Positions 1,534 to 21,431 of a DNA stretch of 21,431 nucleotides are shown here, in pieces. The translations under genes and the position numbers were made by a program. Location of the stretch: the IMG/VR virus record IMGVR_UViG_2563366923_000001, positions 1 to 21,431 of that record, one strand, 5' to 3'. The DNA comes from a virus. Lineage: Duplodnaviria > Heunggongvirae > Uroviricota > Caudoviricetes. The notes beneath the pieces are model-generated. The model was not told the DNA's origin and did not search any database. It saw only the letters and a list, made by a program, of their open reading frames with translations. How positions within the stretch are numbered: the stretch's first letter is position 1; every line of letters begins with the position of its first letter.

Positions 1534-1595
1534 ACGTACAACAAATTGAAATAAAAGGATTTATTTCTGGTCACGTCCACACATTGACCACATCG

Positions 1596-1630: not shown

Positions 1631-1634
1631 GTAA

Positions 1635-1853: not shown

Positions 1854-1934
1854 CGCGAGCACCTCTTCCGGTTTTATTGATGGTGCCATTTTAGTTAATT
1901 TATCCTTATAAAACAAACAGATAAAATAAAAACA

Positions 1935-3806: not shown

Positions 3807-3818
3807 CGGTCAGGCTCC

Positions 3819-5009
3819 TTAATTGCTGTTAACCGAGGTGACCAGATTTGCCAGGTATTTATCGGTAATACGCTGGCGCAGGGTCAGGTTTTCGAGAGGA
3901 GGCACCGGGGTATAGTCGTAGTCGATATACAGTTTTCCGGCCTTGAGGGTTTCCGCATCGTTGGATTCTTCGCTGAACCAGCAGGTCGCATCCACGATAT
4001 AGCCGTTTGTTTTCAGTTCACGGAATTTGGCATTGATGCCGTCAACGATGTCGCGAATCAGCGTTGCGGTGATGGGCTTGTCCACCGCCCACATGTGCGC
4101 CTCAGCCATCGTGTCGGCCAGCACCTGCGCGGTGCGGGTGTAGTTTTCAAAGAGGAACAGCGGGTCATCAGAGCAGGTACGGTTACCCCAGAAGCGGAAA
4201 CCGTCGCGGCGAATCAGCGTTGTGACGCCAGACTCGTTCAACAGGTCAGCATCGGTGCCGGACTCCTGCAAATCCCAGAATACAGATGCGCTGATGCCGG
4301 TAACACCGTTTACCCCGACGTTGGACAGCGTTTTATGCCAGCCCTGCTCCTGGTCGATTTTAGCGCGCAGACCCAGCGCACGGGCGGTGGCATACGCGGT
4401 GGCGGTGGTACTGGTGACCGTATCCCATGCGAGGAAATCCGGCCAGATGACCATCAGCTCACGCTGGCTGAAATTCTGGCGGTAGGCTTTCACCTCGGAA
4501 ATGGTCTTACAGCCCCATGCGCTGATATATCCGAAAGCGCGCAGCTTCTGACAGACGGATGCTAGTGCAACAGCCACCTCTTTGGTATCCAGTCCCGGCA
4601 CACCGAGAATACGCGGTTTAACACCGGTTACCGACTCCGCCGCCAGCAGGGCTTTCAGTCCGGTGTACTGACCGTTTTCGTCGGTGGTGCCGATGATATT
4701 GGAAACGGTCTGCGCAAGTTTCGTTTCCTCGTCGTCGCCGGTGCCGTCTTCCACACGCACGACAACGGTGACCGGTTTTGACTGGTCGGCGATGGCCTGC
4801 AACGATGCCGCCAGCGTGCCTTTTTTACCGGCCTTTGCAATTGCGCTCTGCACATTGGTAATCAACACCGGTTTATTGAGGGGGAAGGTTTCCGCATCCG
4901 CATCGCTGGCCGTGCAGACCATGCCGACAATGGCAGTGGATACGGTGGAAATGACGCGGGTGCCGTCGTTAATCTCCAGCACCTGCACGCCATGATGATA
5001 GTCACTCAT
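3819..5009 (-). CDS. FI: P2 gpFI-like tail sheath protein (396 aa)
   Basis: Track ORF 3819..5162 has an internal start MSDYHHGVQVLEINDG... at 5009-5007, preceded by a GGAG RBS; the 396 aa from that Met matches the P2 FI length. Confidence 0.85.
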   Translation of the reverse strand: MSDYHHGVQVLEINDGTRVISTVSTAIVGMVCTASDADAETFPLNKPVLITNVQSAIAKAGKKGTLAASLQAIADQSKPVTVVVRVEDGTGDDEETKLAQTVSNIIGTTDENGQYTGLKALLAAESVTGVKPRILGVPGLDTKEVAVALASVCQKLRAFGYISAWGCKTISEVKAYRQNFSQRELMVIWPDFLAWDTVTSTTATAYATARALGLRAKIDQEQGWHKTLSNVGVNGVTGISASVFWDLQESGTDADLLNESGVTTLIRRDGFRFWGNRTCSDDPLFLFENYTRTAQVLADTMAEAHMWAVDKPITATLIRDIVDGINAKFRELKTNGYIVDATCWFSEESNDAETLKAGKLYIDYDYTPVPPLENLTLRQRITDKYLANLVTSVNSN

Positions 5010-5100
5010 CCGTTTAACTCCGTGGTTAATGGGTGCAACTATTTTCTGTTGTGCAGAGCATGAGACGCTATTTGACCTGGCTGGCCAGTGGATGAAACAA

Positions 5101-5133
5101 CAGATAAAGAAAAGGCGGGCAATCAGCCCGCCA
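5101..5133 (-). terminator. Putative rho-independent terminator on the minus strand (GGCGGGC-TGATT-GCCCGCC followed by TTTTCTTTATCTG)
   Basis: 7-bp GC-rich inverted repeat at 5113-5119/5125-5131 with a T-rich tract downstream on the minus strand; sits between the Z/fun-position cargo and the FI promoter region. Confidence 0.45.
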
Positions 5134-5378
5134 GCCTTGATTTGCACTCTCTCAATTTCCAACTGACAAAATACGTAGCCAAAACGCTATCAAATCTGAC
5201 AGCCTGCTTTGAGCGAGAAACAGACATGGATGGCATACAGTGAAAGTAGCCGCACAATGAGCATCACTGCAATTCTGAATTCAAGCTCTAATACTATTGA
5301 GACCGTATCATACAGTCACTCGCAAAAATTACTTTACCTGAGTGAAAAAATTGATTCCAAGCAAAATGAAAACTTGTA

Positions 5379-5406
5379 ATTCATTATTACATGCATAATA
5401 ATGAAT
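5379..5406. promoter_or_regulatory. AT-rich 11-bp perfect inverted repeat (ATTCATTATTA-CATGCA-TAATAATGAAT) about 100 bp upstream of the OLD-like gene; candidate operator
   Basis: Read directly from the sequence; a TATATAAA -10-like element follows at 5420-5427. Confidence 0.3.
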
Positions 5407-5508
5407 AAAAACTTGAGCTATATAAACCAAAGTTGTTCCGAATAGTCCGTTGAGACATCACTCGAATTATAGGAATACAAGGTTTTATTTTTATAAGGAA
5501 TCGCTCCC

Positions 5509-7773
5509 ATGGGTTTGCAAAGCATAAGAATAAAAAACTTACTATCATTTAATGATGTAATAATAAATTCCCTAGAGGATGTAAATTGCATTGTAGGGAT
5601 GAATAATGTTGGCAAATCCAATCTTATGAAAATATTGAAATATTTTTACGACAAACTTGACGACATAAAAGTAATACCTCCTGATTTTCATTCTAGTTAT
5701 ACTCCTTCAGGGTCAATAACATTGACTTATGATGTAACAAGAATAAAGAGAATTGTAATGAACCCTAATAACAATGGTCGCTTTCACAAGCATATTTATA
5801 ACACTTTATTTAAGCCACAATCATTCATCCGAAAGCCGCAGAAATTCTGTCTTCCTTTCATATCTCCTTTGGGTTTCCAAAGAAAAAGCACTTATAGCAT
5901 TACACTCACAATTTCTAAAGATGACTCCGTAACTTGGTCAATTAGCACACCAAATGCCCGGCATCTAATTAAAACTCTATTTCCTTTTTTCCATATTGAA
6001 ACCAGACACATTGACTTATACGACTGGAATAGCATATGGAAAATGCTCAGCAGTATAAATTCCTTTAATTTCTCTGAAATAAAAAAAGAAGAACTCCTTG
6101 AGTTTTTGAATGAGAAAATATCAACTAAGCGGGGTAGTTACAAGAAGTATATAGAAAGAGTTGAAAATGTAATCCATACTAAACCTTACACCTATAAAGA
6201 TAAAGTCGTTAATTATCTAAAAATAGTTTTAGATGGCGATATTTTCATAAATAAAGGTGAAGAACTACATGTTCAGTCGGATGGCACGAACTCTCACAAA
6301 TATCTTGAAATTATACTTAGCCTATTAATTTCATTAACAAGAACAGAATTTATCAATCCAATTATATATATTGATGAACCTGAAATTGGGCTACATCCAA
6401 AACTTAGCGAGAACTTTATTGAGAACATAAGCCTGACATATAAAAAGTATGATAAAACCCATGAGGAAATTGAGCCTGGAAAATATTCAACACCATATCC
6501 AACTCTTATATTTAGCACTCATTCTCCGAGTTTACTAAAACTCACGCTAAAATCTTTCTTACATAAACAGCAGGTTTTGCATTTTTCAAAAGAACGTGAC
6601 AACTCGACCAAAATTTCAAAATTAAACTCTAAATATAATGACATTAGATTTATAAATATGCTTAGCGATAATGAGGCCCGTCTATTCTTTAGTGAATACA
6701 TTCTATTTGTAGAGGGCGCCACAGAAGTTGAATTGTTTAGAAATTATAATCTGCAAAAGCTGTTTCCAGTACTTAAAAGGTTAGATGTGTATGATTGCGA
6801 TGAAGTAATGTTGAAAAATATAAACCCCAGCTACTCAAATGCAGCCATCCCATTTCTAGTAGTAAAGGATATTGATCAGATTGCCGTTGTTGACTTCGAA
6901 CATGAACAATTTAAATTTAATTCGAAAGGGAAATCAATTATTAATAAAATCATTAAGAGAGATAAACTACACTATTTTTCGACATACCAAAAACCTTTTC
7001 TTAACGCAGCAAAATTTCTTTTAAGCCAAGATGAAAGGAAAGTAACATTCAGTGAAAATGGCCTAAAATTCAGACACTTCAGTATAGGCAGAGTTATAAG
7101 CGCAGTTAATTTTTTATCCTCTAAAGATAATGTTTATTATACTTCTACAACGATAGAAGGCTCATTGATCAATGAATTCTCTTTAGAGACATTCTCTTTA
7201 TGGATCATTGACATAGTAATGAGAAGCTTTAATGTAAATAATAAAAACCCTGTAAAAATGATTAATGCTCTGCTGCAAAAATACGATATTAAAACCCAAT
7301 CAAAACAACTTTTTCCCAAAATACTTTCAAAATGTGAAACAAATCATGACCTACCATTGCGACACATGAGATTATTGAAAATCATTAAAATTAGATATGC
7401 TAAAGAAATAATTGATGAGTTTAAAAAAACCATCCCCGACGTAAAAGACCAAGTTGCTATCTTGCGCCTTATTTTTAGTGGCAAAACAGAAACTCTTGTA
7501 AGTATAGAAATGCATTATAAAATTGATCAAAAACCGATACGGCAAGATATATTGGATTATATCAAAGCATTAAAGTCAGAAAATTTCTCTTTTATGAGTT
7601 CTTACATAGGAAAGACTTCTGGATGGGTTACAAGCTTCATTGATTTTAGCCTTAATCATTATTCAGCCCTAGATAAAGAAAATGTCGAAAAAAAATTCCG
7701 CTTGGCTTTTCCTGAAATTTCGCATATCATCGATCATGCTTCTTCTTCGATAGAAGCTGGAGGGCTCAAATGA
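5509..7773 (+). CDS. OLD-family nuclease-like protein: N-terminal ABC-type ATPase, central TOPRIM domain, about 300-aa unassigned C-terminal extension (754 aa)
   Basis: Walker A GMNNVGKSN near the N-terminus; Walker B/D-loop IIYIDEPEIGLHP; H-loop FSTHSP; TOPRIM glutamate motif LFVEGATEVELF and DxD-like VVKDIDQIA; AAGGAA RBS before the ATG; strongly AT-rich relative to the prophage backbone. Confidence 0.75.
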   Translation: MGLQSIRIKNLLSFNDVIINSLEDVNCIVGMNNVGKSNLMKILKYFYDKLDDIKVIPPDFHSSYTPSGSITLTYDVTRIKRIVMNPNNNGRFHKHIYNTLFKPQSFIRKPQKFCLPFISPLGFQRKSTYSITLTISKDDSVTWSISTPNARHLIKTLFPFFHIETRHIDLYDWNSIWKMLSSINSFNFSEIKKEELLEFLNEKISTKRGSYKKYIERVENVIHTKPYTYKDKVVNYLKIVLDGDIFINKGEELHVQSDGTNSHKYLEIILSLLISLTRTEFINPIIYIDEPEIGLHPKLSENFIENISLTYKKYDKTHEEIEPGKYSTPYPTLIFSTHSPSLLKLTLKSFLHKQQVLHFSKERDNSTKISKLNSKYNDIRFINMLSDNEARLFFSEYILFVEGATEVELFRNYNLQKLFPVLKRLDVYDCDEVMLKNINPSYSNAAIPFLVVKDIDQIAVVDFEHEQFKFNSKGKSIINKIIKRDKLHYFSTYQKPFLNAAKFLLSQDERKVTFSENGLKFRHFSIGRVISAVNFLSSKDNVYYTSTTIEGSLINEFSLETFSLWIIDIVMRSFNVNNKNPVKMINALLQKYDIKTQSKQLFPKILSKCETNHDLPLRHMRLLKIIKIRYAKEIIDEFKKTIPDVKDQVAILRLIFSGKTETLVSIEMHYKIDQKPIRQDILDYIKALKSENFSFMSSYIGKTSGWVTSFIDFSLNHYSALDKENVEKKFRLAFPEISHIIDHASSSIEAGGLK

Positions 7774-7893
7774 GCTGACGCATGCCGTCACTTGCTCCAG
7801 CAAACACTAGCTCGGATTGTCTTGCGTCCGCTAAGCCGCTTTAAGCCTCACGGGGTGTAAAGATGTTATTGGTATCGAAGAGGAAGCTTTTAC

Positions 7894-8991
7894 ATGAAAC
7901 ATAAAATTAATAAAATTAACAATGATTTTTATAAAAATTTTTATCTAAGAGAAACATTCTCCGATGATATTATTATGACTCACGGAGTCCCTGAGATTTC
8001 CAATGACGATTATAAAAGCATTTCATTAAAGAATAGATTATGTTTCACTATAAGAAAAAGCTCCCCGCATAAAAAAATACAAGAAAGACTTATAAAAAAT
8101 TTCCTAGTAAAAGTTCCTCTTAGCTCACCTGCAATTGCCTATCGTAAAAAATTAAACTATTTGAATTTTCTAGAACCTCATATCCATGGTGAGAACTTTT
8201 GTCGAATTGACTTATGTAATTTTTTTCATAACATAAACTATAACTTTGCAAGGGAGTGTTTCAAATCCTACTTTGAAGATGAATATCTGGTAAATAAAAA
8301 AATCAAAGTTATTGATGCATTTTTAAATAGTTTATCTATTGAGATTGTAGTCAACAATAAAAAGAAAAAAATATTTCCAATGGGATTCGCCACATCACCT
8401 TTCATATCCAATATAATTTTCAGAAAGTTAGATATTTTAATTAAAAGTTTGTGTGACAAAAGAAGCATCATTTACACTCGTTATGCTGATGATATGCTTT
8501 TTTCGAGCTCCGGGAAAGACAAACTTCTTGGAAGTGAACATTTTGACAACGAGATATCAACTATTGTCAATACGGCAGGACTGTCCCTCAACAAACATAA
8601 AAAAATATTTAAGAAAGGCATAATCTCACTAAACGGCTATGTAATAGAAAATAAAAATGGAGGGGGAGAGAGAGGGAGTATAAGAATATCTAATGGAAAA
8701 ATGTATTTAATACGGAAAGCACTAGATAAATTTAAAAAGGGATATTCTAAAGAGCATATTTGCAAAAAAGTATTTTCTGTTAAATCACCAACTGTCAAGT
8801 ATAATAACAATGCAGATCAGTTTGTAACGGATTTTTATAATTCACAATTCTCTAATAAGTTAGCTGGTTATCGTTCATATTTAATATCATTAGTAAAATT
8901 TAATGATAAATTCAGATGTTTTCACGAAAACGAAATCACCAAATACTCAGTGATTATTGATGAAATTTCTAATGCACTGCTAAAACCCTAG
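7894..8991 (+). CDS. Reverse transcriptase, retron/Abi-like (365 aa)
   Basis: RT motifs in order: RIDLCNFFHNI (motif 2 region), FPMGFATSPFISNIIF (motif 4, compare retron PQGxxxSPxLSN), YTRYADD (catalytic YxDD at 8482-8493), LSLNKHKK and ISLNGYVI (retron-like motif 6/7 region, but no canonical VTG); GAGGAAG RBS; AT-rich; no maturase or endonuclease domain. Confidence 0.8.
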   Translation: MKHKINKINNDFYKNFYLRETFSDDIIMTHGVPEISNDDYKSISLKNRLCFTIRKSSPHKKIQERLIKNFLVKVPLSSPAIAYRKKLNYLNFLEPHIHGENFCRIDLCNFFHNINYNFARECFKSYFEDEYLVNKKIKVIDAFLNSLSIEIVVNNKKKKIFPMGFATSPFISNIIFRKLDILIKSLCDKRSIIYTRYADDMLFSSSGKDKLLGSEHFDNEISTIVNTAGLSLNKHKKIFKKGIISLNGYVIENKNGGGERGSIRISNGKMYLIRKALDKFKKGYSKEHICKKVFSVKSPTVKYNNNADQFVTDFYNSQFSNKLAGYRSYLISLVKFNDKFRCFHENEITKYSVIIDEISNALLKP

Positions 8992-9413
8992 CCTTAGAAA
9001 GTTAATGTTTTGGCCCTAAAGCAAGGGCCTTAATAGTAAAAATAGTTACCAGCATAAGTATTCCTTCAACTAATCACACAAATTAACGTTAGCAACGTTC
9101 CCTTTTTACACCGTCTGAGCACTAAGCTGTCGGTCATTCTGGTCTACCATACTATTATACGTAACATCCAAGAGTGTTCCTGCAAACGGTCGTAGAAAAT
9201 GCGGGCTTCGCCATTTTCTGGCCGACGCCGGTCTCGTCGAGTTCTTCTGACTGTTCAAGTGCAAATGCGCCTGTAGGTATCCCTACAAAAGAAACCATCA
9301 ACTTTTAGATAGTATCTGGCACTCCAACTCCCGCTGTTGACTCGGAGCGGACTGTCAGATTAGGCTTTACTCTGTACCATAGATACGTTAGCTCACTCCA
9401 GAGATCATACAAC

Positions 9414-9941
9414 TTATTGCGGCATGTCCGGCCATTCAGGATTTGAAGGGTCCACACGACTGACCAGAACGCTGTAGCGTTCCCATGCATCCAGTCGACT
9501 GCGCTCCTCACCTGTTGCCATATTCAGCCTGACAGCGCGCTCCAGCGGCAAAATTACGGATTCAGCTTCGGAAAGCAAAGCTGCCTTATGTAATTCCGCT
9601 AGTTTCTGCTGTTCGTCTGCCGTATAAATCCGCTTAATCACGGCACCATCCTTAAACATCCATTTACCTGAGTCATCAGCACGCCGGTTGGCAGTAATAT
9701 CAGGAACCTCAACGACGCTAAAACCTTCAGGATTAAGCGTTGAAGCATCTCTGGTGATGGCGACAATAATATTATTTTCATCGTAAACAATCTTTATTGT
9801 GTCTGGCTGAAAATTACTTACTTCCTCATACCAGTTTTTTCCGTCTTCGGACCATAACCAGATAACATCAAAATTCTTTGTTAGCTGATATTGCTCTTTT
9901 GTTTTTGGATTACCTGACTTAATGTTCTTTAAATGCTGCAT
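9414..9941 (-). CDS. G: P2 gpG-like tail fibre assembly protein (175 aa)
   Basis: 175-aa ORF matching P2 G in length, immediately downstream of the tail-fibre gene remnant. Confidence 0.8.
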
Positions 9942-9944
9942 TAC

Positions 9945-11030
9945 TTACACCTGCGCAACGTTATACCATGTGCCATTGATGTATTTTTGTATCGGCCTGA
10001 AGATGGCCTCATCATCGCCATCTACTTCACCAATGATTCTTAATCCGGTAATCGTGTGTCCGGCTTTTTCATAACGACCACCTCGCGCCATCAATTGAAC
10101 AACTCGCGTACCCAGGCGAACATCTTTCACATAGCGGGAATCAAAATTCCCCCAGTTGCTGGGTTGCATCTGACCGTTAACAGCAAATATTACCGAGTTA
10201 TCTGTATTTCGCTGGCTATAGAAATGCCATCCGGACTCATCGCCTAACTCTGCAACCACTGGACGGTTGGAAGCACCCCATAAATTAAAGGTAATATTCT
10301 TCGTGGATGTGTTAGAGCTGGATAGCGAGAACTTTTTACTATCCCCTGCCTGAATATTTTTAAAAGCAATAGCCACTCCATTCTGAAAACGGAATACACG
10401 CTGACTGTTAGCATAAACATCAAGAATACCGTCTCCATTCTGTTTAAATCCGGTATCATTATCACCAAGGACAATAGAGCTACCACCTAGTGCATTCGTC
10501 GTACCAACTCCAAGACAGCCATTAATGACGGCATTAACAAGAATATTTAGTGCATCCCATTTCAGCGTCATCAGGTCTTTTGTTGTGGTACTCTGGCGGC
10601 TTCTCCATTTGAAATATTCATTGCCGTTATCCCCCGTTTCAAACCACATGTATGAATCAGCGTCACCATCGGCATCATTTTTAAATCCAATCTTCGCCCA
10701 GTCAGTATTTCGAATCCAGGCAAGGATTGAGTCGTTTTCAAAAGTAATCCCGCCGGACAAGGTATCGCCATTCTTTTGCACCGCGTTCCTGGCCCTGTTT
10801 ACCGTTTCCTGCAAACCGAGGTATTCGATAACGGCAGCAATGGTCGCTTTAGCCAGAATATCCCGCCCGACTTTTGTCAGGGTTGCCAAACTGGCAACAT
10901 CATTCCCCGTAAAATACGGAAAGCTGTCTGCCGCAGTAGCAAGCCCCGCCAGCGCCGTCAGAGTGGCATCTTTCGGTTGCTTACCCGCAAGCGCATTAGT
11001 CATGGAGGTAGCAAAATTCGGGTCTCGGCC
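9945..11030 (-). pseudogene. H: Tail fibre gene H remnant (C-terminal half, about 360 codons) lacking its N-terminal half
   Basis: Reading frame continues upstream of Met 11003 as ...DPNFATSMTNALAGKQPK..., which I recognise as an internal H region; upstream of about 11027 the frame decodes nonsense that overlaps J in another frame. P2 H is 669 aa. Confidence 0.72.
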
Positions 11031-11860
11031 AGCGGTGCAGTCAGTTCGACACGCTGCACGCCTTCCACATGCAAAGCGGCATAAATGGCAGACAGACGGA
11101 TGTCGCGCCCCAGCCGGTGCTGTGCCGTGATGTACGCTTCCAGTTTTTTCACGGCAGCAGCGCGTATGGGTTCGCTTTCGGGACCAGGGTAAAGGTAAAG
11201 CGTGGCGTTTATCTGGTATTCAACGATGGCGGCAGACTGCACGGTCACGCGGTCGGCCACCGGCCTGACGTCCTCGCCATTAAGGGCGTTACGCACCACC
11301 GCCAGCAGGTCTTCGGATGCGACACCGTTATTTTCACGTGACAGCACAGAGATGGTGACGCAGGCCGGAGACGGACTGGTTACAGAAATATCCGCGACAC
11401 GCCCGTCGGCACTGCGACCATGATACTGATAGGCCCCCACCGACCCGGCGACGCTTAAACCTTCAAACGCCTGCTGAATACGCAGACGATAATCCGTGTC
11501 AGATTCCATCACTGCCGGTGTCGGCGGGATGGTCGAATCATCTTCCAGGGTGATAATCAGGCGCGTGGTGTTGTAATTGGCACCAATCACATCAAGGTCA
11601 TTACCGGCAGCACAGGCCAGCATCACCGCCCGTGCGGCCTCATTCACACGCTGACGCCAGATAAGCTCACGATAAGCATTTTCCTCCAGCAGTTTGACGA
11701 GAGGCTCAGATTCCAGCGTCAGGGTACGGGCGACCGCCTCCTGCTGGTCTTCCGGGTAAAGGGAAATCAGTGTCGCCTTGCGTTCGGCAAGAATGGTTTC
11801 AAAGTCCAGCTCCTCAACCACATCCGGTGCGGGTAGCTGGTTCAGGTCGATAATCGGCAT
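11000..11860 (-). pseudogene. J: Baseplate gene J with altered/truncated C-terminus (286 aa against 302 in P2); gene I absent
   Basis: ORF starts MPIIDLNQLPAPDVVEELDF... (J N-terminus); the last about 8 codons (ETRILLPP) read into H-derived sequence; the stop overlaps the H-frame Met (ATGA). Confidence 0.62.
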
Positions 11861-11864
11861 GGTT

Positions 11865-12212
11865 TCAACTCACAGGAATGGTTAACGAAAGTGGCTGGCC
11901 GGTGTCGTTGTGCTGGCCGGTTAACGTGACCGTCATTCGCCCGTCAAAACTGCGCTCAGTGGTGACGGATGACAGGGTGACGCGGGGTTCCCATTTCAGC
12001 ACCGCCATGTAACAGGCGACCTTAATCTGCAACTCAAGCGCCGGGGTCTGCGGCTGGTCAATCATTGACGCCAGCAACGAGCCGTAATCACGACGCATCA
12101 CCCGCGAGCCGACCGGTGTGCGCAGGATATCGCCGATACTCTGGCTGATATGCTCAAGGTCAGTGACAGTCAGGCCATCACTGCGATTCATTCCGAGATA
12201 ACGCGCAGTCAT
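11865..12212 (-). CDS. W: P2 gpW-like baseplate protein (115 aa)
   Basis: 115-aa ORF, same length and position as P2 W (between V and J). Confidence 0.82.
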   Translation of the reverse strand: MTARYLGMNRSDGLTVTDLEHISQSIGDILRTPVGSRVMRRDYGSLLASMIDQPQTPALELQIKVACYMAVLKWEPRVTLSSVTTERSFDGRMTVTLTGQHNDTGQPLSLTIPVS

Positions 12213-12565
12213 AGAGGTCCCCCTGTTGTGCCGCCGCTGTCGCCGGGGTGTTTATGGGTATGAAGTACCTTACCGTTTGATGAGAGTTCACCGCCGGTGT
12301 GTTCAATGTTGCCGCGCATCGTCCCGCCCTTCTGCACTTCCAGCGTGCCGGTAATCAGCCTGTTGGTGCAGACCACCTCCGGTGTGTCCAGGGTGACGCG
12401 GGTTGATGCTTTCACCATGACCACCGGCACCGTGGCGGTAACAGAATCAGAAGCCGTCACGCTGGCCGTTTTAATTCCGCTTACCGTAAGTGCACTGGTT
12501 TCGGGTTCATACTCAATCATCGCTGCCGAGACCCGCATCATGTGGCGCTGTGCGGGACTCGTCAT
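12209..12565 (-). pseudogene. In-frame M'-V' fusion remnant: first about 16 codons of terminase small subunit gene M joined to the C-terminal about 100 codons of baseplate spike gene V
   Basis: ORF begins MTSPAQRHMMRVSAAM (recalled as the gpM N-terminus) then continues IEYEPETSALTVSGIKTASV... (V C-terminal region); 118 aa against 211 aa for V; sits directly after the N stop, where M starts in P2. Confidence 0.62.
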
Positions 12566-12568
12566 CGG

Positions 12569-13060
12569 TTACGCTCCCGGCTCTGCGGTCGCTTTAGCCG
12601 GTGTGGAGAAATCACCGACCTTAATTTTTTCCACCAGACAACCGGCGGCGTAGTCCTCCACCACGTAATCAATGTTCATTGACTCGTAGTTCTCCACGCG
12701 ATCGAGTTTCGGGTTTTCCTCAATCACGCGGCGATGGCTGTCATCCATGTAGTAGATGGACAGGTTTTCCAGCTTCGTGATGAGCATCGCATCAGCCGGG
12801 AAGTACGGGACGCGTACCGCTGGCAGGTTGCCGATGCGTTTCTGGCTGATGATGACGTCAGCGGCCAGCATTTCGCTGTTGTCCTGCTCCTTGTTGACGA
12901 TGGGAAAATACTTGTCCGCCAGTAGCTGACGTCCCACAATCACCACAAGGTCAGGGTCTTCCTGATACCACGGCTCAATCAGGTTGTTGGTCGCATCCAT
13001 CACCAGTGCATCAAGGCTGGCATAATCACCGCCCTTATCCGTTCTGGTCGGGTGAACTGT
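12569..13060 (-). pseudogene. N: Major capsid gene N remnant (C-terminal about 157 codons only)
   Basis: Frame reads ...KGGDYASLDALMMDATNNLIEPWYQEDPDLVVIVGRQ... to the stop at 12569; an upstream in-frame stop at 13061-13063 and no N-terminal about 200 codons; P2 N is 357 aa. Confidence 0.68.
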
Positions 13061-14051
13061 TCAACCGGGGACGCGCCAGCGCCGCCGAACGCGTGGAAAT
13101 CGACGTCAGTCATAACGCCCTTGCCGGTGGGCTTCTCTGTGCGGACGGCCAGTGGCGGCAGATTGTCACCATTGAGGACGCCCTGAAAGGTGGCTGCACG
13201 CTGTTCGACATTGAGCAGCTTAAACGCGAAAACAGCGCCGACGATTTTAAAAACCTGTTCATGTGTGAATTTGTTGACGACAAGGCGTCGGTATTTCCCA
13301 GCAGGATTTCAGCCGCTTTGTGCTGGATTTTCTGGTGTTCGGCAATGCGTTTCTGGAAAAGCGTTACAGCACCACCGGTAAGGTCATCAGACTGGAAACC
13401 TCACCGGCAAAATATACCCGCCGTGGCGTGGAAGAGGATGTTTACTGGTGGGTGCCGTCCTTCAACGAGCCGACACCTTTCGCGCCCGGCTCCGTGTTTC
13501 ACCTGCTGGAGCCGGATATTAATCAGGAGCTGTACGGCCTGCCGGAATATCTCAGCGCCCTTAACTCTGCCTGGCTGAATGAGTCGGCCACTCTGTTCCG
13601 CCGCAAGTATTACGAAAACGGCGCACATGCCGGATACATCATGTACGTCACGGATGCCGTGCAGGATCGCAACGATATCGAAATGCTTCGCGAAAACATG
13701 GTGAAGTCGAAAGGCCGCAACAACTTTAAAAACCTGTTTCTCTATGCCCCGCAGGGAAAAGCCGACGGCATTAAAATTATCCCGCTCAGTGAAGTGGCGA
13801 CGAAGGACGATTTTTTTAATATCAAAAAAGCCAGTGCCGCAGACCTGCTGGACGCGCACCGCATCCCCTTTCAGTTGATGGGCGGCAAGCCGGAGAACGT
13901 CGGGTCGCTGGGCGATATTGAGAAAGTAGCAAAGGTCTTTGTCCGCAATGAGCTTATCCCGTTACAGGACAGGATCCGCGAGATAAACGGCTGGCTCGGT
14001 CAGGAGGTCATCCGATTTAAAAACTACTCACTGGACACTGACAACGGCTGA
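13040..14051 (+). pseudogene. Q: Portal gene Q remnant: no start codon, reading frame switches near 13280-13300
   Basis: C-terminal 243 codons (13320..14051, frame 3) are an intact portal-like sequence; the N-terminal part is in frame 1 (track ORF 13006..13578); frame 3 has a stop at 13275-13277; frame 1 upstream of about 13040 is antisense to N; position next to cos fits P2 Q. Confidence 0.62.
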
Positions 14052-14056
14052 ACATC

Positions 14057-14078
14057 GCCGCCTGCGGGCGGCTTTTTT
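14057..14078 (+). terminator. Rho-independent terminator after Q (GCCGCC-TGCG-GGCGGC plus TTTTTT)
   Basis: 6-bp GC stem and T6 tract beginning 6 nt after the Q stop codon. Confidence 0.7.
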
Positions 14079-14220
14079 ACACCCCGTCATCACGCCCTCA
14101 CACGTTCGCCACTGTACAAAACACCCCGCAGACACACCAACGCCCCGGCAGGCCGACTAAACGCCATCACGACGCGCTCAGACGCTGAAAAAATAAAATC
14201 AGCACCACCGCCAGCGCGCA

Positions 14221-14239
14221 GTGCTTTCCCCGCCTCGCC
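14221..14239. other. P2 cos cohesive-end sequence (reverse complement of GGCGAGGCGGGGAAAGCAC)
   Basis: GTGCTTTCCCCGCCTCGCC at 14221-14239 matches the 19-nt P2 cohesive end as I recall it, and sits where cos lies in a P2 prophage (between Q and the tin/old region). Confidence 0.72.
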
Positions 14240-14331
14240 CGCCCGCTTCATGGGGCGGTTTTAATGCAGTTACATAGATACTATGGATCCGCACCAGTCC
14301 TGACCGCACGCAGCCTGAACGGACATCCCCG

Positions 14332-14365
14332 ACGCATGCAAAAACATTCACTTGTTGCATGCAAC
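14332..14365. promoter_or_regulatory. Tandem GCATGCAA palindromic motifs (CGCATGCAAA at 14333-14342; perfect palindrome TTGCATGCAA at 14355-14364) upstream of the 313-aa cargo gene; candidate operator/promoter
   Basis: Read directly from the sequence; the two sites are 23 bp apart; a related ATGCATGCAA occurs at 16698-16707 upstream of the divergent cargo operon. Confidence 0.35.
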
Positions 14366-14477
14366 GGCTTATTTAATGACAAATCAACTTAAATTTACAA
14401 AATCCACAGGTATGGATACTTTGCGAACATGATAGGCTTACGAGAATTATCGTGCCTGTTTTTGAACGGAGAAAGTT

Positions 14478-15419
14478 ATGCAAGGTGAAGTTGACGAACA
14501 GCAACCAAATGAGATTATTTCGGAGTTTGGATACTATCCAGTAGAAGTTAACATTGAGACTGAACAATTTTCTTTGCGTACTTTACCCGGTCTTATTGAG
14601 AAAGTGGAACGTATTAACAATGATAAAAACGTTGTTAATGGTTGGATATACCCTGGGAATCGAAAGGTATATAACCTTAATGGTGACACATGCACAATGC
14701 CTTATAGTTACCGAGTATTCGGCATGCCCAAAACGCACACACTAAAATTAAAAAACACATCCTCGTTAGAAACTCTCAACTTTGTTGTGTGGTGCCTCTC
14801 TTTTTTCAAGGGTATAAGATTGACAACCACTGACGCTGGTTTTCTTGATGCAACCACTATCAAGCCCACTAAGTTAACCGACTTTATTCTCGTTGGATGC
14901 TCTGAAAAAGAAGTAATAGAGCTAGCACTTAACTATATAAAAGACAAACAAAAAGATGATCGCTCCATTAAAAGAATAGCTGCGGTGATACACTCCCTAT
15001 TCCTGTCACATAACCCACTATACCTTTCCTTTGAGAAATTCCAGTATCTTTATATGGCTCTTGATTGCTGTTTTGCTATAGCATGGGATGAAAGGGATAA
15101 AGTCATTAAAGAGAAAAAACCATCTCATCAAAATAGAGTATATTGGACGTGCGAAAATTACGGTGTAAAAATCCCGTCATGGGCAACAGATGAATGTAAT
15201 GTTTCAGTTATACGCAATGATAATTTTCATGAAGCCATTTTTAATGGGCAACCGCTTGGTTTCTCTAGTATCAATGATTGTCAATATGGTAGCGATATAT
15301 TGCTACAAATGCAGGCTCTGGTATGTCGTCTACTAGCGGCAATACTCTCTGTAAATGATCGTAAATATATCGCATCTACAATCAGCTCGATAGAGTACCA
15401 TTCATTAAAATTAACTTAA
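14478..15419 (+). CDS. Hypothetical protein (313 aa), AT-rich cargo at the tin/old position; no recognisable motifs
   Basis: Long ORF with a GGAG RBS 8 nt before the ATG; composition contrasts with the prophage backbone; first gene after cos. Confidence 0.6.
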   Translation: MQGEVDEQQPNEIISEFGYYPVEVNIETEQFSLRTLPGLIEKVERINNDKNVVNGWIYPGNRKVYNLNGDTCTMPYSYRVFGMPKTHTLKLKNTSSLETLNFVVWCLSFFKGIRLTTTDAGFLDATTIKPTKLTDFILVGCSEKEVIELALNYIKDKQKDDRSIKRIAAVIHSLFLSHNPLYLSFEKFQYLYMALDCCFAIAWDERDKVIKEKKPSHQNRVYWTCENYGVKIPSWATDECNVSVIRNDNFHEAIFNGQPLGFSSINDCQYGSDILLQMQALVCRLLAAILSVNDRKYIASTISSIEYHSLKLT

Positions 15420-15491
15420 TGCTAACGCCTCACTTCGCTCGTTGTTCAACCCCGCCAGCCTGAAAACAAGTTTCACGACTGGCGGCGTTCT

Positions 15492-15644
15492 CTATCGTCT
15501 GCGTGGTGGTGGCGCAACTCTGGACTGACCGATATAGTTAAACCGCCCGTAATTATCCCGGACTATTTCGGCACACCCGACCAGCTCGTCAGGCGTCAGA
15601 TTTTCGTTGACCATAATCTGCTGTAAACGGTGAACAATGGCCAT
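15492..15644 (-). CDS. Possible small ORF (50 aa, MAIVHRLQQIMVNENLTPDELVGCAEIVRDNYGRF...), function unknown
   Basis: ATG-to-stop ORF below the track size cut-off, with an in-frame upstream stop and a weak AGG-type RBS; backbone-like GC content; could be a remnant of a phage gene. Confidence 0.2.
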   Translation of the reverse strand: MAIVHRLQQIMVNENLTPDELVGCAEIVRDNYGRFNYIGQSRVAPPPRRR

Positions 15645-15738
15645 CAACCTGACACTTTTGGTGTTATATGTGGTATCTCACATGAGATTACTGACCAAGG
15701 TGCATCTTGGTTGACTCATTTCATATCCATCCACACCA

Positions 15739-16419
15739 CTACATCTTTATTGCATATTTATTAAAAGACGCCCAGTTCAATAAAAAAACATTATTCATAT
15801 ACCATTCAATATGATTTTTATTTTTAGATTGACTGTCAAGTAGCACACAAACATCAACCTGTTTATCAATCAATTTTGCAATATAAACCACAAACTCAAC
15901 ACTCGAATATCTCTTTGTGCCTAGCAAATATAATATTTCATCTGACAAATAATTAGACTCATGTGAAAAGACATTATCATTTAACAAAATCAACCCGCCA
16001 ATCGAGTCATTTAAATCCAAAACATCCTTTGTTGCATTTATTTGCTTATTAGCTTCCTTAACTATCTTTGTTTTAATATTTTCATAAGCAAAGTTCATTA
16101 TATCATTTCTAAATCGCTTTGAGTCTGGGTGTCTTTTTATCAACTCTTCTAAATGAATAGCACCATGCCAGTTTTTTGCAAGCCAACTATCAGTTTTAAC
16201 CAACTCATTCAGTTTATCATTGACATTCTTGACCCTGTCAGAAAAAAGACTTTTCATCTCCAAAATTATCTTTTTATTATCAATAAGATAATCTGCCATC
16301 TTGCGATTCTGACCATCCTTCATCCGGAACTTATGATGAATATCATCAATAGAAATCCCTTTTTCATGCTCAACAATGAATCTCTTAACATTGTTTTCTA
16401 ATTCGCTGTATTGTTTCAT
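15739..16419 (-). CDS. Hypothetical protein (226 aa), AT-rich cargo; no recognisable motifs
   Basis: ORF with a strong GGGGGAAAG RBS; 27 nt downstream of the DUF2158 gene on the same strand (operon-like). Confidence 0.6.
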   Translation of the reverse strand: MKQYSELENNVKRFIVEHEKGISIDDIHHKFRMKDGQNRKMADYLIDNKKIILEMKSLFSDRVKNVNDKLNELVKTDSWLAKNWHGAIHLEELIKRHPDSKRFRNDIMNFAYENIKTKIVKEANKQINATKDVLDLNDSIGGLILLNDNVFSHESNYLSDEILYLLGTKRYSSVEFVVYIAKLIDKQVDVCVLLDSQSKNKNHIEWYMNNVFLLNWASFNKYAIKM

Positions 16420-16446
16420 ACTTTCCCCCGTGAATTTTATTATGAT

Positions 16447-16638
16447 TCACTTACGTGGACGACACAGCATACCACTTTTACTCTCTGCTATTTCCAGTAA
16501 ATCAATGGAGAATGACTCCTCGTGCAAAACTCCTTCTTTATCATGCCAAATACATTTCGCATGAGTTTCAGTAGAGTCAGATACAGTCATTTTAAATCCA
16601 CCGCTTTTCAAACAAACAACATCTGCAGGCTTTAACAT
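16447..16638 (-). CDS. DUF2158 / YodC-like small protein (63 aa)
   Basis: Internal start MLKPADVVCLKSGGFKMTVSD... with GGAG 7 nt upstream; the DVVxLKSGGxxMTV signature resembles YodC-family small proteins; the track ORF 16447..16722 over-extends the N-terminus. Confidence 0.55.
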   Translation of the reverse strand: MLKPADVVCLKSGGFKMTVSDSTETHAKCIWHDKEGVLHEESFSIDLLEIAESKSGMLCRPRK

Positions 16639-16764
16639 TTTTGTCTCCAACATTTTTAAGTAATGCATTATAACATAATGATATTGACGTAGATTTAATG
16701 CATGCAACCATATAAAAAACAATCAATTACAGTCAAAACTACTTATACTGTATAGATGAGATCC

Positions 16765-17781
16765 TTACTCAAATTGATGCCAGAATCCCGACCACTCATC
16801 AGCGACCGGATACGTGAATTTTTTCCCGTCATAATTTACGGTCGCGCCACGCGCCAGCGCCTCAAGCTCCCATCGCTGCGGCCTGATACCGTTCTGAGCA
16901 AGGTCAACGCGGATACGGGTGATTTGCAATCGTTCAGACCGGGTCAGTCTGGCCGATGGCGCTATTTCATGTGGTTTTAACGGGCTTCCGTTTCTTTGCT
17001 GACGATTTGGTGTTTTCAGGCCGTGTTTTAATGCACCCCTGAGCGTCCTCACGACCTCCGGGTCATTCCATTCGATAACACCGTCATCAACCAGATTTAG
17101 CACTGCTGCGGCGTGTTCAGAAGGTGTGGGAGCCGGTAACGAAGTATCACCACCGGTGAGCTTTCCACAGTTATTGACAGGACTCCGAGGCGCGGCGATG
17201 CCGCTTTTTAACGTCAAAGGCTCAACGACCGGCACTTTCGGCACAATGCGCCAGTCCGTCGTTCTGGTGATATGAATATGACGCGCGCCGAGATGCGGCG
17301 CGTAAATGCCGACCACTCTCTCGACCTCTTCCTCGTACTCGTTAACGTCATCCGACGGGCTACGGGCAACCCTGACAGTCTGACAATCGCGCGGAACATT
17401 TGCCCCACCCTGCGCGCTGATATACAACGCAAAATCACCACTGTCTGCGGCAGCGCGTGCAGCCTCGACGCGTTCGTCAAACTCATCAGCAATGCTGACG
17501 CCGCGAGGCAATTTGCGTAGTTCACGGTAAGCCCCCATTGTCGGCAGACCAACCGTTTTAAATTGCGGAATGCGCCACGTTGACGCCCATGCGGTAACAG
17601 CAGCAGCTGTGTCTTTCAGCGGCCTGCCGGTATCATTATCGAGCTGACCATCCAGTGCATAGCCGTCGATGTTTTTTGAGATGTATTTCGCGATATATCC
17701 CGCAGCACCGCCCCGGTTAAGATGTTTTGTTGTTCCTGAATAAAATCTACGTTGTCCGGCATTATCAGCTCCTTTTATCGT
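16765..17781 (-). pseudogene. A: Replication initiator gene A remnant (C-terminal about 335 codons, with the YIAKYISK active-site region, but no N-terminal about 430 codons and no start codon)
   Basis: Frame is open from 17781 to the stop at 16765 and reads ...KHLNRGGAAGYIAKYISKNIDGYALDGQLDNDTGRPLKDTAAAVTAWASTWRIPQFKTVGLPTMGAYRELRKL...; the rolling-circle Rep Y-x-x-K-Y motif is present; no in-frame start before Met 17538; P2 A is 761 aa. Confidence 0.68.
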
Positions 17782-18067
17782 TCAGTTTCTTAAATTCATC
17801 AGCGCAATAGCTGGCGATTTCTGTCATTAATTTCGTCAGTTCATCCACGGAGGAGATTTGCTTGTGGAATACAGCGCGTTTAACAAGTAAATTGACCACC
17901 TCAGACAGGAGGTTTAATTCATTCTGATAAATCGCGATAACAGATTCAGTTATGTCGCGTTTTTCTTTATCAAGACAAAGTTGAATAAGAGACAAATCAC
18001 CATTTTCCATAACGGCGATTTTTAAGGCGTTATTCAGTAATACAACTGAATGAGAACAGGACATCAA
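17765..18067 (-). CDS. Hypothetical phage early-region protein (100 aa)
   Basis: ORF in the B-to-A interval, where P2 carries small orf80-83-type genes; start overlaps the stop of the upstream 74-aa ORF (ATGA). Confidence 0.45.
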
Positions 18068-18288
18068 AGTACCTCCCCGCGAGACAATCCGATATTGTGA
18101 AATTTTTCCGACTCCTGACTGAGCAGCTCGACTATCTCCACGCGGGATAACTCCGCCTTTGTGATGTGGCGAATCATGGCGTCAAGATGAGAAGAAAAGC
18201 GCGTCGCAGCGTCGGCCTGTGCTTCGGTTCTGGCCTGTTGCAGCAGTAATGCGTATTTACCGCACTGATTTTCAGAAACTGTATGCAT
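18064..18288 (-). CDS. Hypothetical phage early-region protein (74 aa)
   Basis: ORF translationally coupled to the downstream 100-aa ORF; lies in the early operon between B-like and A. Confidence 0.45.
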
Positions 18289-18351
18289 GACTTTCTCCAG
18301 GCAAAAAGAAGCCCCGCACGATTAAGTGCGTTAAAAACTCTGGTTAATTAC

Positions 18352-18858
18352 TTAATGCAGATATTGCTCTGGTTTTACCGACGTCAGAATTGTCGGTGCA
18401 TACTCAAACAGGCTGAATAATTCACGTAATGCACGGAATAAAGCATCACGCCAGTAACATGATTCTTCATTAATTCGCCAGTATGGCTGGTTGAATTCTT
18501 TTTCAGTCAATCCGGCATGCATAAATAAAGTACGACGCTGACTGACTGTTAAAAAACTAATATATGCATACTCACTTGCGCCAACCTGACGGCGTTTTGA
18601 GAATGCCCCACGCAATTCATCAATTGCACATACCAGTCGTTCACGTTCGACGTCGTTCATTTCTTCAAAACACATCGTTGCGTGACGCTGTTTTAACTGA
18701 GCATGGAAGCAAACCGTTAACCGTTCGCGCTCCATCATCTGATTATAATAATCACATGTATCCTGCCAGCGAGGAACGGCAAGATGCTTACCAATTATCC
18801 GGCGCATAGCTGCTGGCTGTTTTTCAACGAGATTGAGCGTCATCACTGTCATTTCCAT
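18352..18858 (-). CDS. B: P2 gpB-like replication protein (168 aa)
   Basis: Size (168 aa against 166 aa for P2 B) and position (cox - small ORF - B - small ORFs - A) match the P2 early operon; the sequence itself was not independently recognised. Confidence 0.55.
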   Translation of the reverse strand: MEMTVMTLNLVEKQPAAMRRIIGKHLAVPRWQDTCDYYNQMMERERLTVCFHAQLKQRHATMCFEEMNDVERERLVCAIDELRGAFSKRRQVGASEYAYISFLTVSQRRTLFMHAGLTEKEFNQPYWRINEESCYWRDALFRALRELFSLFEYAPTILTSVKPEQYLH

Positions 18859-19019
18859 ACCCTCCGGCTTTTCAGAAAGGTCAGAGCCTTTTTTAACGGA
18901 CTCTGTTTTTTGGTGCGGATAATGATTCCCTTACGCCCCTTACCGTGGGTGATGGTGAAGTCAATCGCCCTGGGGCTTTCGTTACGCAGTAACTGAGCAA
19001 TACAACGAGGCTCATTCAT
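18849..19019 (-). CDS. Small early-operon ORF (56 aa; orf78-position)
   Basis: Internal Met at 19019 preceded by an AGGAGAA RBS; lies between cox and the B-like gene. Confidence 0.35.
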   Translation of the reverse strand: MNEPRCIAQLLRNESPRAIDFTITHGKGRKGIIIRTKKQSPLKKALTFLKSRRVWK

Positions 19020-19029
19020 ACGGTTCTCC

Positions 19030-19305
19030 TTAACGTGGTTCACCGAGACCTAACCACATCAACCAGCCGTCACGAATCTCTTTAGGGCGGCTTTCATAAG
19101 CCAGTTTTAGTCCGTTATTCCATGCCGGAAGGTATACCCAATATTCACCTGCACGACCTGAAGCTGATTGTGGATCGGTCATATCAATTACAGGCAGCTT
19201 TCCTTTATCGATCATCCGACGAACCGCTCCTGTCGATTTTCCTATTAGTTTTGCGAACTCCTGATAAGGAATCGCATCAGTCATGAGTGTTACTTGCTTG
19301 CTCAT
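19030..19305 (-). CDS. cox: Cox, excisionase / early transcriptional regulator (91 aa)
   Basis: 91-aa ORF recognised as P2 Cox (MSKQVTLMTDAIPYQEFAKLIGKSTGAVRRMIDKGKLP...), divergent from C. Confidence 0.9.
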   Translation of the reverse strand: MSKQVTLMTDAIPYQEFAKLIGKSTGAVRRMIDKGKLPVIDMTDPQSASGRAGEYWVYLPAWNNGLKLAYESRPKEIRDGWLMWLGLGEPR

Positions 19306-19419
19306 GTCGTCCTCTAGCCCTCATGAATTGCGTTTAATGTCTTATAATGCCTTTTAGTGCCCACATCCAAGCACTAAACAATCTACATCTAAACTAAATA
19401 CTATTGAGATCTAAACACC
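19306..19419. promoter_or_regulatory. Divergent Pe/Pc switch region with two direct operator repeats ATCTAAAC (19387-19394 and 19409-19416, 22 bp centre-to-centre)
   Basis: Intergenic region between divergent cox and C; 8-bp direct repeats two helical turns apart, as described for P2 C operators; TTATAAT element at 19342-19348. Confidence 0.6.
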
Positions 19420-19719
19420 ATGTCAAACACGATAAGCGAGAAGATAGTCTTAATGCGAAAATCAGAGTATTTGAGCAGACAACAACTTGCTGATTTAACA
19501 GGGGTTCCGTATGGCACGCTGAGTTACTATGAAAGTGGTCGTTCAACACCTCCAACAGATGTCATGATGAACATCCTGCAGACCCCACAATTCACCAAAT
19601 ACACTTTATGGTTCATGACCAATCAGATCGCTCCTGAGTCCGGGCAAATTGCGCCCGCTCTCGCACACTTTGGGCAAAACGAAACAACGTCGCCCCACTC
19701 CGGTCAAAAGACTGGTTAA
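19420..19719 (+). CDS. C: Immunity repressor C (99 aa)
   Basis: 99-aa ORF, same length as P2 C, divergent from cox and upstream of int. Confidence 0.88.
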   Translation: MSNTISEKIVLMRKSEYLSRQQLADLTGVPYGTLSYYESGRSTPPTDVMMNILQTPQFTKYTLWFMTNQIAPESGQIAPALAHFGQNETTSPHSGQKTG

Positions 19720-19834
19720 CAATTCATCGTGAATATATTCATCACAAGTGCCTACTATTGGTGGCTAAATTTCAGCCACCACGAAAAAAGCGATTAGTAG
19801 TCGCAAAAAAACACACCACTCGGAGGGTTTTCTG

Positions 19835-20848
19835 ATGGCAATCAAAAAACTCGATGATGGTCGATATGAAGTGGACATCCGCCCTACTGGACGTAATGGA
19901 AAACGCATCCGTAGGAAGTTTGATAAGAAAAGCGAAGCTGTCGCTTTCGAGAAATACACGTTGTACAACCACCACAATAAAGAATGGCTATCAAAACCAA
20001 CAGACAAGCGACGTCTGTCGGAGCTGACACAGATCTGGTGGGATTTAAAGGGTAAACACGAAGAGCATGGGAAATCTAATCTTGGAAAAATTGAAATCTT
20101 CACAAAAATAACGAATGACCCATGCGCATTTCAAATTACGAAATCGCTTATCAGCCAGTACTGCGCCACCCGAAGAAGTCAGGGTATTAAACCTTCGAGT
20201 ATCAATCGTGATTTAACATGTATTAGCGGCATGTTTACAGCCCTGATTGAAGCGGAGTTATTCTTTGGTGAGCACCCTATCAGAGGGACAAAAAGGCTTA
20301 AGGAGGAAAAACCAGACACAGGCTATCTCACGCAGGAAGAAATTGCCTTACTGCTTGCTGCTCTTGACGGCGACAACAAAAAGATTGCGATTCTTTGCCT
20401 GAGTACTGGAGCACGTTGGGGAGAAGCAGCTCGTTTGAAAGCAGAAAATATCATCCATAACCGCGTCACGTTTGTTAAAACGAAAACAAACAAACCACGC
20501 ACCGTCCCGATCTCAGAGGCTGTTGCCAAAATGATCGCGGATAACAAACGAGGTTTTTTATTCCCTGATGCTGATTACCCTCGCTTCAGACGAACAATGA
20601 AAGCAATAAAACCGGATTTGCCAATGGGGCAAGCCACACATGCACTAAGGCACAGCTTTGCCACTCATTTCATGATTAATGGAGGAAGTATTATCACGCT
20701 ACAACGGATACTAGGTCACACGCGGATTGAGCAAACTATGGTTTACGCTCATTTTGCGCCAGAGTACCTTCAGGACGCCATTTCTCTTAATCCGCTAAGA
20801 GGTGGTACTGAGGCCGAGAGTGTCCACACAGTGTCCACAGTAGAGTAA
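19835..20848 (+). CDS. int: Tyrosine integrase (337 aa)
   Basis: 337-aa ORF (P2 Int length) with the C-terminal tyrosine-recombinase signature (…HALRHSFATHF…LGHTRIEQTMVYAHF…); GGAGGG RBS; adjacent to the att core. Confidence 0.9.
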   Translation: MAIKKLDDGRYEVDIRPTGRNGKRIRRKFDKKSEAVAFEKYTLYNHHNKEWLSKPTDKRRLSELTQIWWDLKGKHEEHGKSNLGKIEIFTKITNDPCAFQITKSLISQYCATRRSQGIKPSSINRDLTCISGMFTALIEAELFFGEHPIRGTKRLKEEKPDTGYLTQEEIALLLAALDGDNKKIAILCLSTGARWGEAARLKAENIIHNRVTFVKTKTNKPRTVPISEAVAKMIADNKRGFLFPDADYPRFRRTMKAIKPDLPMGQATHALRHSFATHFMINGGSIITLQRILGHTRIEQTMVYAHFAPEYLQDAISLNPLRGGTEAESVHTVSTVE

Positions 20849-20927
20849 CGTTTAAGGGCTTTCAGTGGTAATTTATGCCGCTCAAACCCGCATTGTACCG
20901 TTGAAAGCCCCTACTGGTGACACCCTA

Positions 20928-20954
20928 AATCTCCCTTACACGGGCTTATTTTTT
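20928..20954. repeat. P2 att core copy (attL, int-proximal): AATCTCCCTTACACGGGCTTATTTTTT
   Basis: Identical to the 27-bp copy at 1507-1533; 80 bp downstream of the int stop. Confidence 0.8.
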
Positions 20955-21113
20955 TATGCATAAGCCCTATCTCTGGTAACCGTCTTCCATTGACCACATC
21001 GATAGAATCCTCCTTCATAGCACGATGCCTTTCACTTATCGGCATCGTGCTCCCACAGGTTCCGGCTACGCACAGCCAGAACGCGCATATTTGACGCTTA
21101 CCAAAAAATATTC

Positions 21114-21431
21114 TCACTCTCCACATTTGAATGTCAGACGAGCGACACCATGTAATCCTACACCTTCTGTCTTCAGCTCAACTATTTGCATTTTTTTGCC
21201 CTGAGTAACACAGAAATGAGTTGCATCATTTTTTACTATATTTTCTGCACCAGATATTCTACCCCTGGCTAAAGAAGCTTCGGCTTCGGTGTAGTATTGG
21301 TTATCGAGTTTACGCTGAATATTACTTTTATATGCAAGACCAAATTTACCGATACTTGTCTCATCATTATGCACAGCACAACCAGACATAATAAAAATAC
21401 TAATTAATGATATAGCAGCTATCTTTTTCAT
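21114..21431 (-). CDS. yegR: YegR-like small lipoprotein (105 aa)
   Basis: 105-aa ORF with a lipoprotein-type signal (…IFIMSGC…); recognised as E. coli YegR, which flanks the P2 remnant in the reference locus; start codon at the window edge. Confidence 0.75.
   Translation of the reverse strand: MKKIAAISLISIFIMSGCAVHNDETSIGKFGLAYKSNIQRKLDNQYYTEAEASLARGRISGAENIVKNDATHFCVTQGKKMQIVELKTEGVGLHGVARLTFKCGE

Follow-up and report, generated by a model that had tools for sequence, protein, structure and literature searches.

We describe here a stretch of late-gene remnants in an integrated P2-like (Peduovirus) prophage, which is very probably a non-functional scar left by two separate microhomology-mediated illegitimate deletions. 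The scar occupies positions 12569-14051 of the window (the whole stretch of DNA that was analysed, 21,431 nucleotides) and has the order N'-P'-Q'. Deletion A (2,564 bp) accounts for the loss of the 5' 60% of the capsid gene N, the whole of O (scaffold), the two divergent late promoters PO and PP, and codons 1-292 of P, which encodes the large terminase; deletion B (910 bp) accounts for that of the last 210 codons of P together with the first ~93 codons of the portal gene Q. Three stumps without a promoter are left, one on the minus strand (N') and two on the plus strand (P' and Q'). Counting four further deletions of like kind, the prophage has lost head assembly, packaging, lysis, the tape measure and a portion of replication gene A, with the immunity and integration genes, cos and the defence cargo being kept.

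The scar is an ordinary instance of the known class of defective P2-like prophages, and taken alone it matters little: it marks a prophage that is, judged by gene content, dead, and it corrects the map to N'-P'-Q' from N'-Q'. The window itself is placed in a defined public lineage, the KTE233 type, in which the prophage has lost 14.4 kb in six cuts and kept retron Eco8 and uncharacterised cargo. The sole part of possible specialist interest is that the right-hand endpoints of the two deletions recur in other prophages. If this recurrence (E. coli B, PSJ-12, AST46 and several drafts) is true, it would offer a concrete way to test how temperate phages of this family come to be fixed as remnants that carry defence genes.

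Organisation of the scar

The window aligns with P2 (NC_001895) by BLAST in eight collinear blocks, all in one orientation with descending P2 coordinates and 94-99% identity. Window positions 12517-13040 correspond to P2 5205-4682 (the first 16 codons of M and the 3' part of N), 13036-13298 to P2 2117-1855, which lies inside gene P (263 bp, 97% identity), and 13294-14239 to P2 944-1 (the 3' part of Q to cos). At junction A the sequence P2 2118-4681 is missing, which takes in codons 1-202 of N, the whole of O, the region of the PO and PP promoters and codons 1-292 of P; at junction B, P codons 381-590 and Q codons 1 to about 93 are missing. Both junctions have P2-collinear flanks, the DNA that separates the two flanks of each in P2 is gone, and a few bases are shared at the joint (Table 1).

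Table 1. Features of the window and joints at the recurrent Q endpoint. Positions are those of the window; gene letters followed by numbers give P2 coordinates.
Feature	Position	Strand	Description
Prophage, whole	1507-20954		defective, P2-like, 19.4 kb; ends are the att core repeats
CyaR sRNA	1445-1530		100.7 bits
att core repeat, left	1507-1534		direct repeat, 27-28 nt
Further junction	3593-3598		deletion of like kind
Retron	5509-8991		type I-B, intact, at the fun(Z) cargo position
Further junction	11025-11048		deletion of like kind
M'-V' fusion ORF	12209-12565		118 aa, product of the V/M junction
Junction V to M	12517-12523		deletion of like kind; P2 10629 to P2 5205, 4.5 kb gone; adjoins the N' region
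N'	12569-13040	minus	major capsid stump; C-terminal 155 codons (gpN aa 203-357) and stop; no native start or PO promoter
Chimeric ORF	13006-13578	plus	190 aa: 10 aa antisense to N, gpP 293-380, out-of-frame Q
Junction A	13036-13040		N (P2 4682) to P (P2 2117); microhomology of 2-5 nt, TA(C/T)CC
P'	13036-13298	plus	internal large terminase fragment; gpP codons 293-380, neither gene end
Junction B	13294-13298		P (P2 1855) to Q (P2 944); microhomology TT(T)CC
Q'	13294-14051	plus	portal stump; codons 94-344 and stop
cos	14221-14239		19-nt cohesive-end sequence, intact, joined as in a prophage
Q-A hotspot cargo	14268-16782		ORFs of 313, 226 and 63-91 aa
Further junction	17728-17729		deletion of like kind
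att core repeat, right	20928-20954		direct repeat, 27-28 nt
Q 940-947 joined to P1855	13294-13298		this window
Q 940-947 joined to P1788			PSJ-12
Q 940-947 joined to S9206			E. coli B/REL606 and four IMG/VR contigs
Q 940-947 joined to D23626			L026
Q 940-947 joined to ~15215			L027
Q 940-947 joined to E19454			L028
Q 940-947 joined to K7123			L039

The prophage and its six deletions

The prophage lies in the E. coli chromosome at the site trhP (yegQ)/cyaR ... yegR. The 3' end of the CyaR sRNA falls inside the left att core repeat, which places the insertion at the 3' end of cyaR. Assignment to the Peduovirus prophages follows from collinearity with P2 over the late, early and att regions, from the flanking att repeats, and from the presence, all at full length, of int-C-cox and ogr at opposite ends. 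In a tblastn search of the window with all P2 proteins, ogr, D, U, FI, G, W, B, cox, C and int are full length, FII, H, J, V, M, N, P, Q and A are truncated, and O, L, X, Y, K, lysA, lysB, R, S, I, E and T have no match. Gene A is without its first 431 residues and retains the ori-bearing part. The element amounts to 58% of the P2 genome, and essential morphogenesis and lysis genes are missing or cut, as in a defective prophage. From the loss of head assembly, packaging, lysis, tape measure and part of A, we would expect no virion production, i.e. a dead prophage. Nor is it a P4-like satellite, as a primase/replicon of its own, sid, delta and psu are all absent; cos alone is present, and the rest is P2 backbone or retron and unknown cargo.

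An intact relative occupies the same chromosomal site in UPEC85, which supports a history of decay, and relative to it there are six internal deletions of about 3.2, 1.4, 4.5, 2.56, 0.91 and 1.77 kb, summing to 14.4 kb. The joints have overlaps of 2-6 nt at five of the six junctions and an imperfect overlap of 24 nt at the sixth. Non-P2 DNA is absent from the joints and there is no repeat longer than 25 nt, such that no transposable element, IS, long repeat or known recombinase site is present at them, nor is there any promoter-like site. Joining would have proceeded by slippage or end-joining at the 2-6 nt homologies. No intermediate carrying part of the six deletions was found among 5,426 complete E. 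coli genomes and the public protein index, so that sequential loss, and with it an order of the six events, is assumed here, and a single multi-break event would be equally compatible.

The four further junctions create fusion ORFs, namely FII' (98 aa), J' (286 aa), H' (352 aa), M'-V' (118 aa) and A' (257 aa), which the KTE233 annotation lists under the name of the parent gene or as hypothetical proteins.

Recurrent endpoints at Q 944 and P 2117

Two of the endpoints recur as one position joined in independent events to different partners. The first, Q 940-947 in P2 coordinates (GGCTT/TCCCAGCAGG), is joined to seven partners in seven differently deleted P2-like prophages (Table 1), with microhomologies of 2-10 nt at the joints. 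Pairwise comparison of the portal stumps for five of the seven events (this window, REL606, L026, L027 and L028; PSJ-12 was dropped on a partial match and L039 was found later) gives 14-26 differences in ~750 nt, and intact unrelated P2-like phages show 1-30 differences, mostly 11-30, over the same stretch of Q. The stumps are thus as divergent as unrelated phages, and the Q 944 junctions seem not to be copies of a single event. The second, P 2117 (GCCTA/CCCGTTCTGG), is joined to three partners, N4682 in this window, lysC8378 in PSJ-12 and V10878 in AST46; outside the window these joints lie at L021 5998 and L042 3272. Over 250 nt, the P fragments of these three events differ at 5-7 positions. 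That the junctions at 944 or those at 2117 share an ancestor is judged unlikely, as the flanks diverge like those of unrelated phages and the partners differ. At both positions the fixed end is always the one closer to cos and ori.

The sample of endpoints is small and partly biased, in that look-up of the 238-aa ORF detects junctions at about P2 903-1014 only and the degenerate-pattern scans presuppose the 944 site; REL606, PSJ-12 and AST46 were found by unbiased DNA searches. Other endpoints are also seen, at Q 995 and 1002 and at P 1456, 1501, 2031, 2352 and 2841. Three complete genomes with a match starting at window 13294 proved to be of the lysA-Q995 type, not 944, and when IMG/VR was scanned for sequence upstream of 2117 that is not native, the only matches were intact divergent phages carrying a synonymous change.

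A junction of lysA 7492 to Q 995 defines another defective type, common to several complete genomes (NIPH17_0020, N1024 and EcMAD1, being L044, L045 and L046; also L025), and in L029 N4196 is joined to Q1002, 7 nt from Q 995.

A contig with 97-98% identity to the window (L071/L075) has N broken at 4685/4686, together with breaks at 22292 and 12126. These adjoin the window's own coordinates 4682, 22291 and 12127 and have other partners, on a single short-read contig from the read archive. L075 (Logan SRR19549217_44) represents a different P2-like prophage that occupies this chromosomal site, and between its positions 9400 and 11800 there appears to be an inverted N'-M-L segment, again on this single contig, with breakpoints within 1-4 nt of three of the window's junction coordinates.

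Possible causes of the recurrence

The endpoints are non-random, and ordinary random illegitimate recombination is accordingly an incomplete account of the deletions. It is quite possible, though we hold it tentatively, that the deletions arise from site-specific breaks at fragile positions, at P2 ~944 in Q, 2117 in P and perhaps 4682-4686 in N, with one end fixed to the nucleotide and the other joined at any available microhomology. The seven partners at Q 940-947 and the three at P 2117, the divergence of the stumps, the breaks of L071/L075 beside the window's N, 22291 and 12127 coordinates, and the constant preservation of the cos/ori-proximal end all favour such a model. So does the 944 site itself, GCTTTCCCAGC, which matches the 19-mer of cos at 10 of 11 positions, there being five such sites in P2. 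However, no mechanism has passed a test, the coincidences in N, T/U and J come from one read-archive contig, endpoints such as 995, 1002, 1456, 1501 and 2841 fall elsewhere, and the likeness to cos is seen at 944 only, the other four cos-like sites of P2 not being endpoints in this sample.

Several sources of such breaks are candidates: forks collapsing while the prophage replicates in situ from its ori, terminase nicking a site that resembles cos, or a nuclease acting with one end protected. By the logic of rolling-circle replication and the annotated nick site, fork breakage where in situ replication would be expected to meet the P-Q operon head-on would fit the fixed ends. For terminase acting at a pseudo-cos, the 10/11 match at 944 has a post hoc p of ~0.003 and there is no match at 2117, and we keep it as a lead only.

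Three other mechanisms were considered and rejected. For hairpin-stalled template switching, small inverted repeats start at both hot spots, but the 60-nt folds are no more stable than shuffled sequences (z 0.05-0.88). Resection by RecBCD limited by Chi does not apply, since the Chi sequence (GCTGGTGG) is found on neither strand of P2 (33.6 kb). The resemblance of the endpoints to CCCTTA/GGCTTA, considered in relation to action of Int at pseudo-att sites, is at background level, with six of the eight sites at the median or below; in this test against the att core N4684 scores 0.11, and only P1501, which is not recurrent, falls below 0.05.

A broader proposal, and a more doubtful one, is that P2-like prophages are inactivated at a few fixed positions (Q 944, P 2117 and possibly N 4684) and not by random decay, the end proximal to cos and ori being kept exact to the base and the distal one rejoined at a microhomology that may lie as much as 23 kb off. 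This would point to a defined and repeated disabling event, for example fork collapse or a terminase nick at a cos-like site. The literature searched contained no report of recurrent breakpoints at the nucleotide level or of P2 breakpoint hot spots, and PMC13586616 states that no obvious pattern was seen in the pseudogenisation of core genes.

Coding content of the stumps

The three fragments retain sequence that is almost unaltered at the protein level. On the minus strand the N' frame reads G*TVHPTRTD and then KGGDYASLDAL, from which point all 155 residues are identical to gpN up to the stop at 12569-12571; the fragment matches positions 190-327 of the 327 of Pfam Phage_cap_P2, and the upstream stop lies at 13061-13063 (tca on the plus strand). 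The translation of P' is identical to gpP aa 293-380 at 88/88 residues and matches Pfam Terminase_6N (E=2e-12), and Q' is identical to gpQ aa 94-343 at 249 of 250. In DNA the fragments are 96-98% identical to P2 and all but one of the changes are synonymous, indicating an absence of drift in the stumps after the cuts, and the deletion events are likely to be recent. Gene callers start N' at the ATG at 13000, giving a 143-aa 'capsid protein' (ELD72751.1 in KTE233), and Q' at the GTG at 13335, giving a 238-aa 'presumed portal vertex protein' (ELD72752.1). The frames at junction B disagree (P in phase 1, Q in phase 3), and the resulting chimeric 190-aa ORF, for which there is no call in the public annotations and no exact match in the protein collection, is probably meaningless.

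We think it very unlikely that the stumps are kept for a function, either as portal or terminase fragments that poison the assembly of an incoming P2-like phage or as parts of a cos-bearing satellite mobilised by a helper. The retention of cos, both att cores, int, cox, C and the ori-containing part of A could be taken to suggest it, as could the near-identity of the fragments to P2 proteins, and PMC13586616 reports that defective P2 elements in which defence genes are conserved are common. However, P' and Q' are in different frames and lack both a start and a promoter, the ORF that spans them is called nowhere, and the protein identity is explained by recency because the carriers are clonal. 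The loss of the first 431 residues of A, the absence of satellite genes and the size of the element also argue against such roles. Under the preferred reading, decay by two deletions, N', P' and Q' are presumably silent.

The first-pass annotation had read this region as a single deletion that fused the C-terminus of N directly to Q, with P and O wholly gone, a reading that the alignment and the protein matches refute. Several of its observations stand: only the C-terminal part of N is left, the frame is native from KGGDYASLDAL onward and is preceded by nonsense and the stop at 13061-13063, O is absent, and N is cut inside the interval 13000-13065 that had been proposed. However, the plus-strand coding that begins at the junction is not portal-like but terminase, with gpP aa 293-380 in frame from 13036, and it is this 263-bp fragment, not Q, that abuts N; homology to Q starts 258 bp further along, behind a second junction. 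Alignment with the Q-P-O-N run of P2 therefore returns P-homologous sequence in the very interval thought to lack it, the outcome that the first-pass annotation had itself set as its refutation. The distance of ~2.7 kb given for the two points in P2 comes near to the size of the first deletion, although the endpoint is inside P and not in Q.

Distribution of the allele

The allele is real and comes from a young clone, as shown by its near-identity in independent samples. Positions 6478-21431 of the window are 100% identical to contig UWJY01000001.1 of GCA_900603235.1, KTE233 has 19,223 matching bases with zero differences, and seven more assemblies or read-archive contigs match the junctions at 99.8-100%. 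E. coli KTE233 and eight or more further public samples thus share the allele at 99.8-100% identity, and carriers, which include KTE233, GCA_900603235.1, GCA_958338245.1 and several read-archive assemblies, have 0-1 differences over up to 19 kb. It was located through a protein index after exact DNA scans had given nothing; the 27-mer of the N-P junction has no exact match in the GTDB species genomes, IMG/VR or the JGI metagenomes. The junction-specific ORFs are annotated in KTE233 (ELD72742-ELD72756) and occur in 5-41 contigs each in the public protein index.

That the junctions are assembly artefacts, i.e. chimeric joins of two P2-like prophages in one genome, is hardly credible, for although many E. 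coli genomes have several P2-like copies (a median of three matching places per genome) and the allele is in none of the 5,426 complete E. coli genomes, at least nine samples from NCBI, ENA and the read archive, each assembled independently, contain the identical pair of junctions, the carriers include a 4.89-Mb scaffold and a 4.63-Mb contig, and the overlaps of 2-6 nt are far below any assembler k-mer.

Relationship to known elements

The defective prophage of E. coli B (REL606, NC_012967, 2.10-2.12 Mb) is similar in that it occupies the same site (yegQ/trhP ... yegR), is collinear with P2 with several internal deletions, has a portal stump starting from P2 945, and keeps int, C, cox and cos. 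It differs in that the stump is joined to gene S (9206) and not to P, that V, W, J, I, H and A are intact, that the cargo is another one, and that its Q' departs from that of the window at 14 of ~750 nt. The prophage of PSJ-12 (NZ_AP027622) is the sole complete genome found with the P'-Q' layout, with P' from P2 2117 and Q' from 944, although its P' extends to 1788 and not 1855, its left neighbour is lysC (8378) and not N, a C-terminally truncated V together with S and R is kept, and P' differs at 5 of 250 nt. Intact P2 (NC_001895) and the UPEC85 prophage share with the window the gene order, the att core, cos and 94-99.8% nucleotide identity per block, but hold the 14.4 kb that the window is missing, including full N, O, P and Q. 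The loss of morphogenesis and replication with retention of cargo at the P2 defence hotspots also resembles the 'grounded' or domesticated defective prophages described previously (PMC6379469; PMC13586616).

Two segments of cargo are carried. The retron encodes a 754-aa ATPase-Toprim effector and a 365-aa reverse transcriptase, and the same cargo is present in the intact UPEC85 prophage, where it is annotated as belonging to the retron Eco8 family; a search against Rfam gave no msr/msd match. The ORFs at the Q-A defence hotspot have no match in PADLOC and essentially no Pfam match in the index. The 313-aa protein of this cargo occurs in 3,599 blocks of the contig index, and in nine of the ten matches listed it occupies the Q-A interval of a prophage whose P and Q are full length, the exception being the lineage described here.
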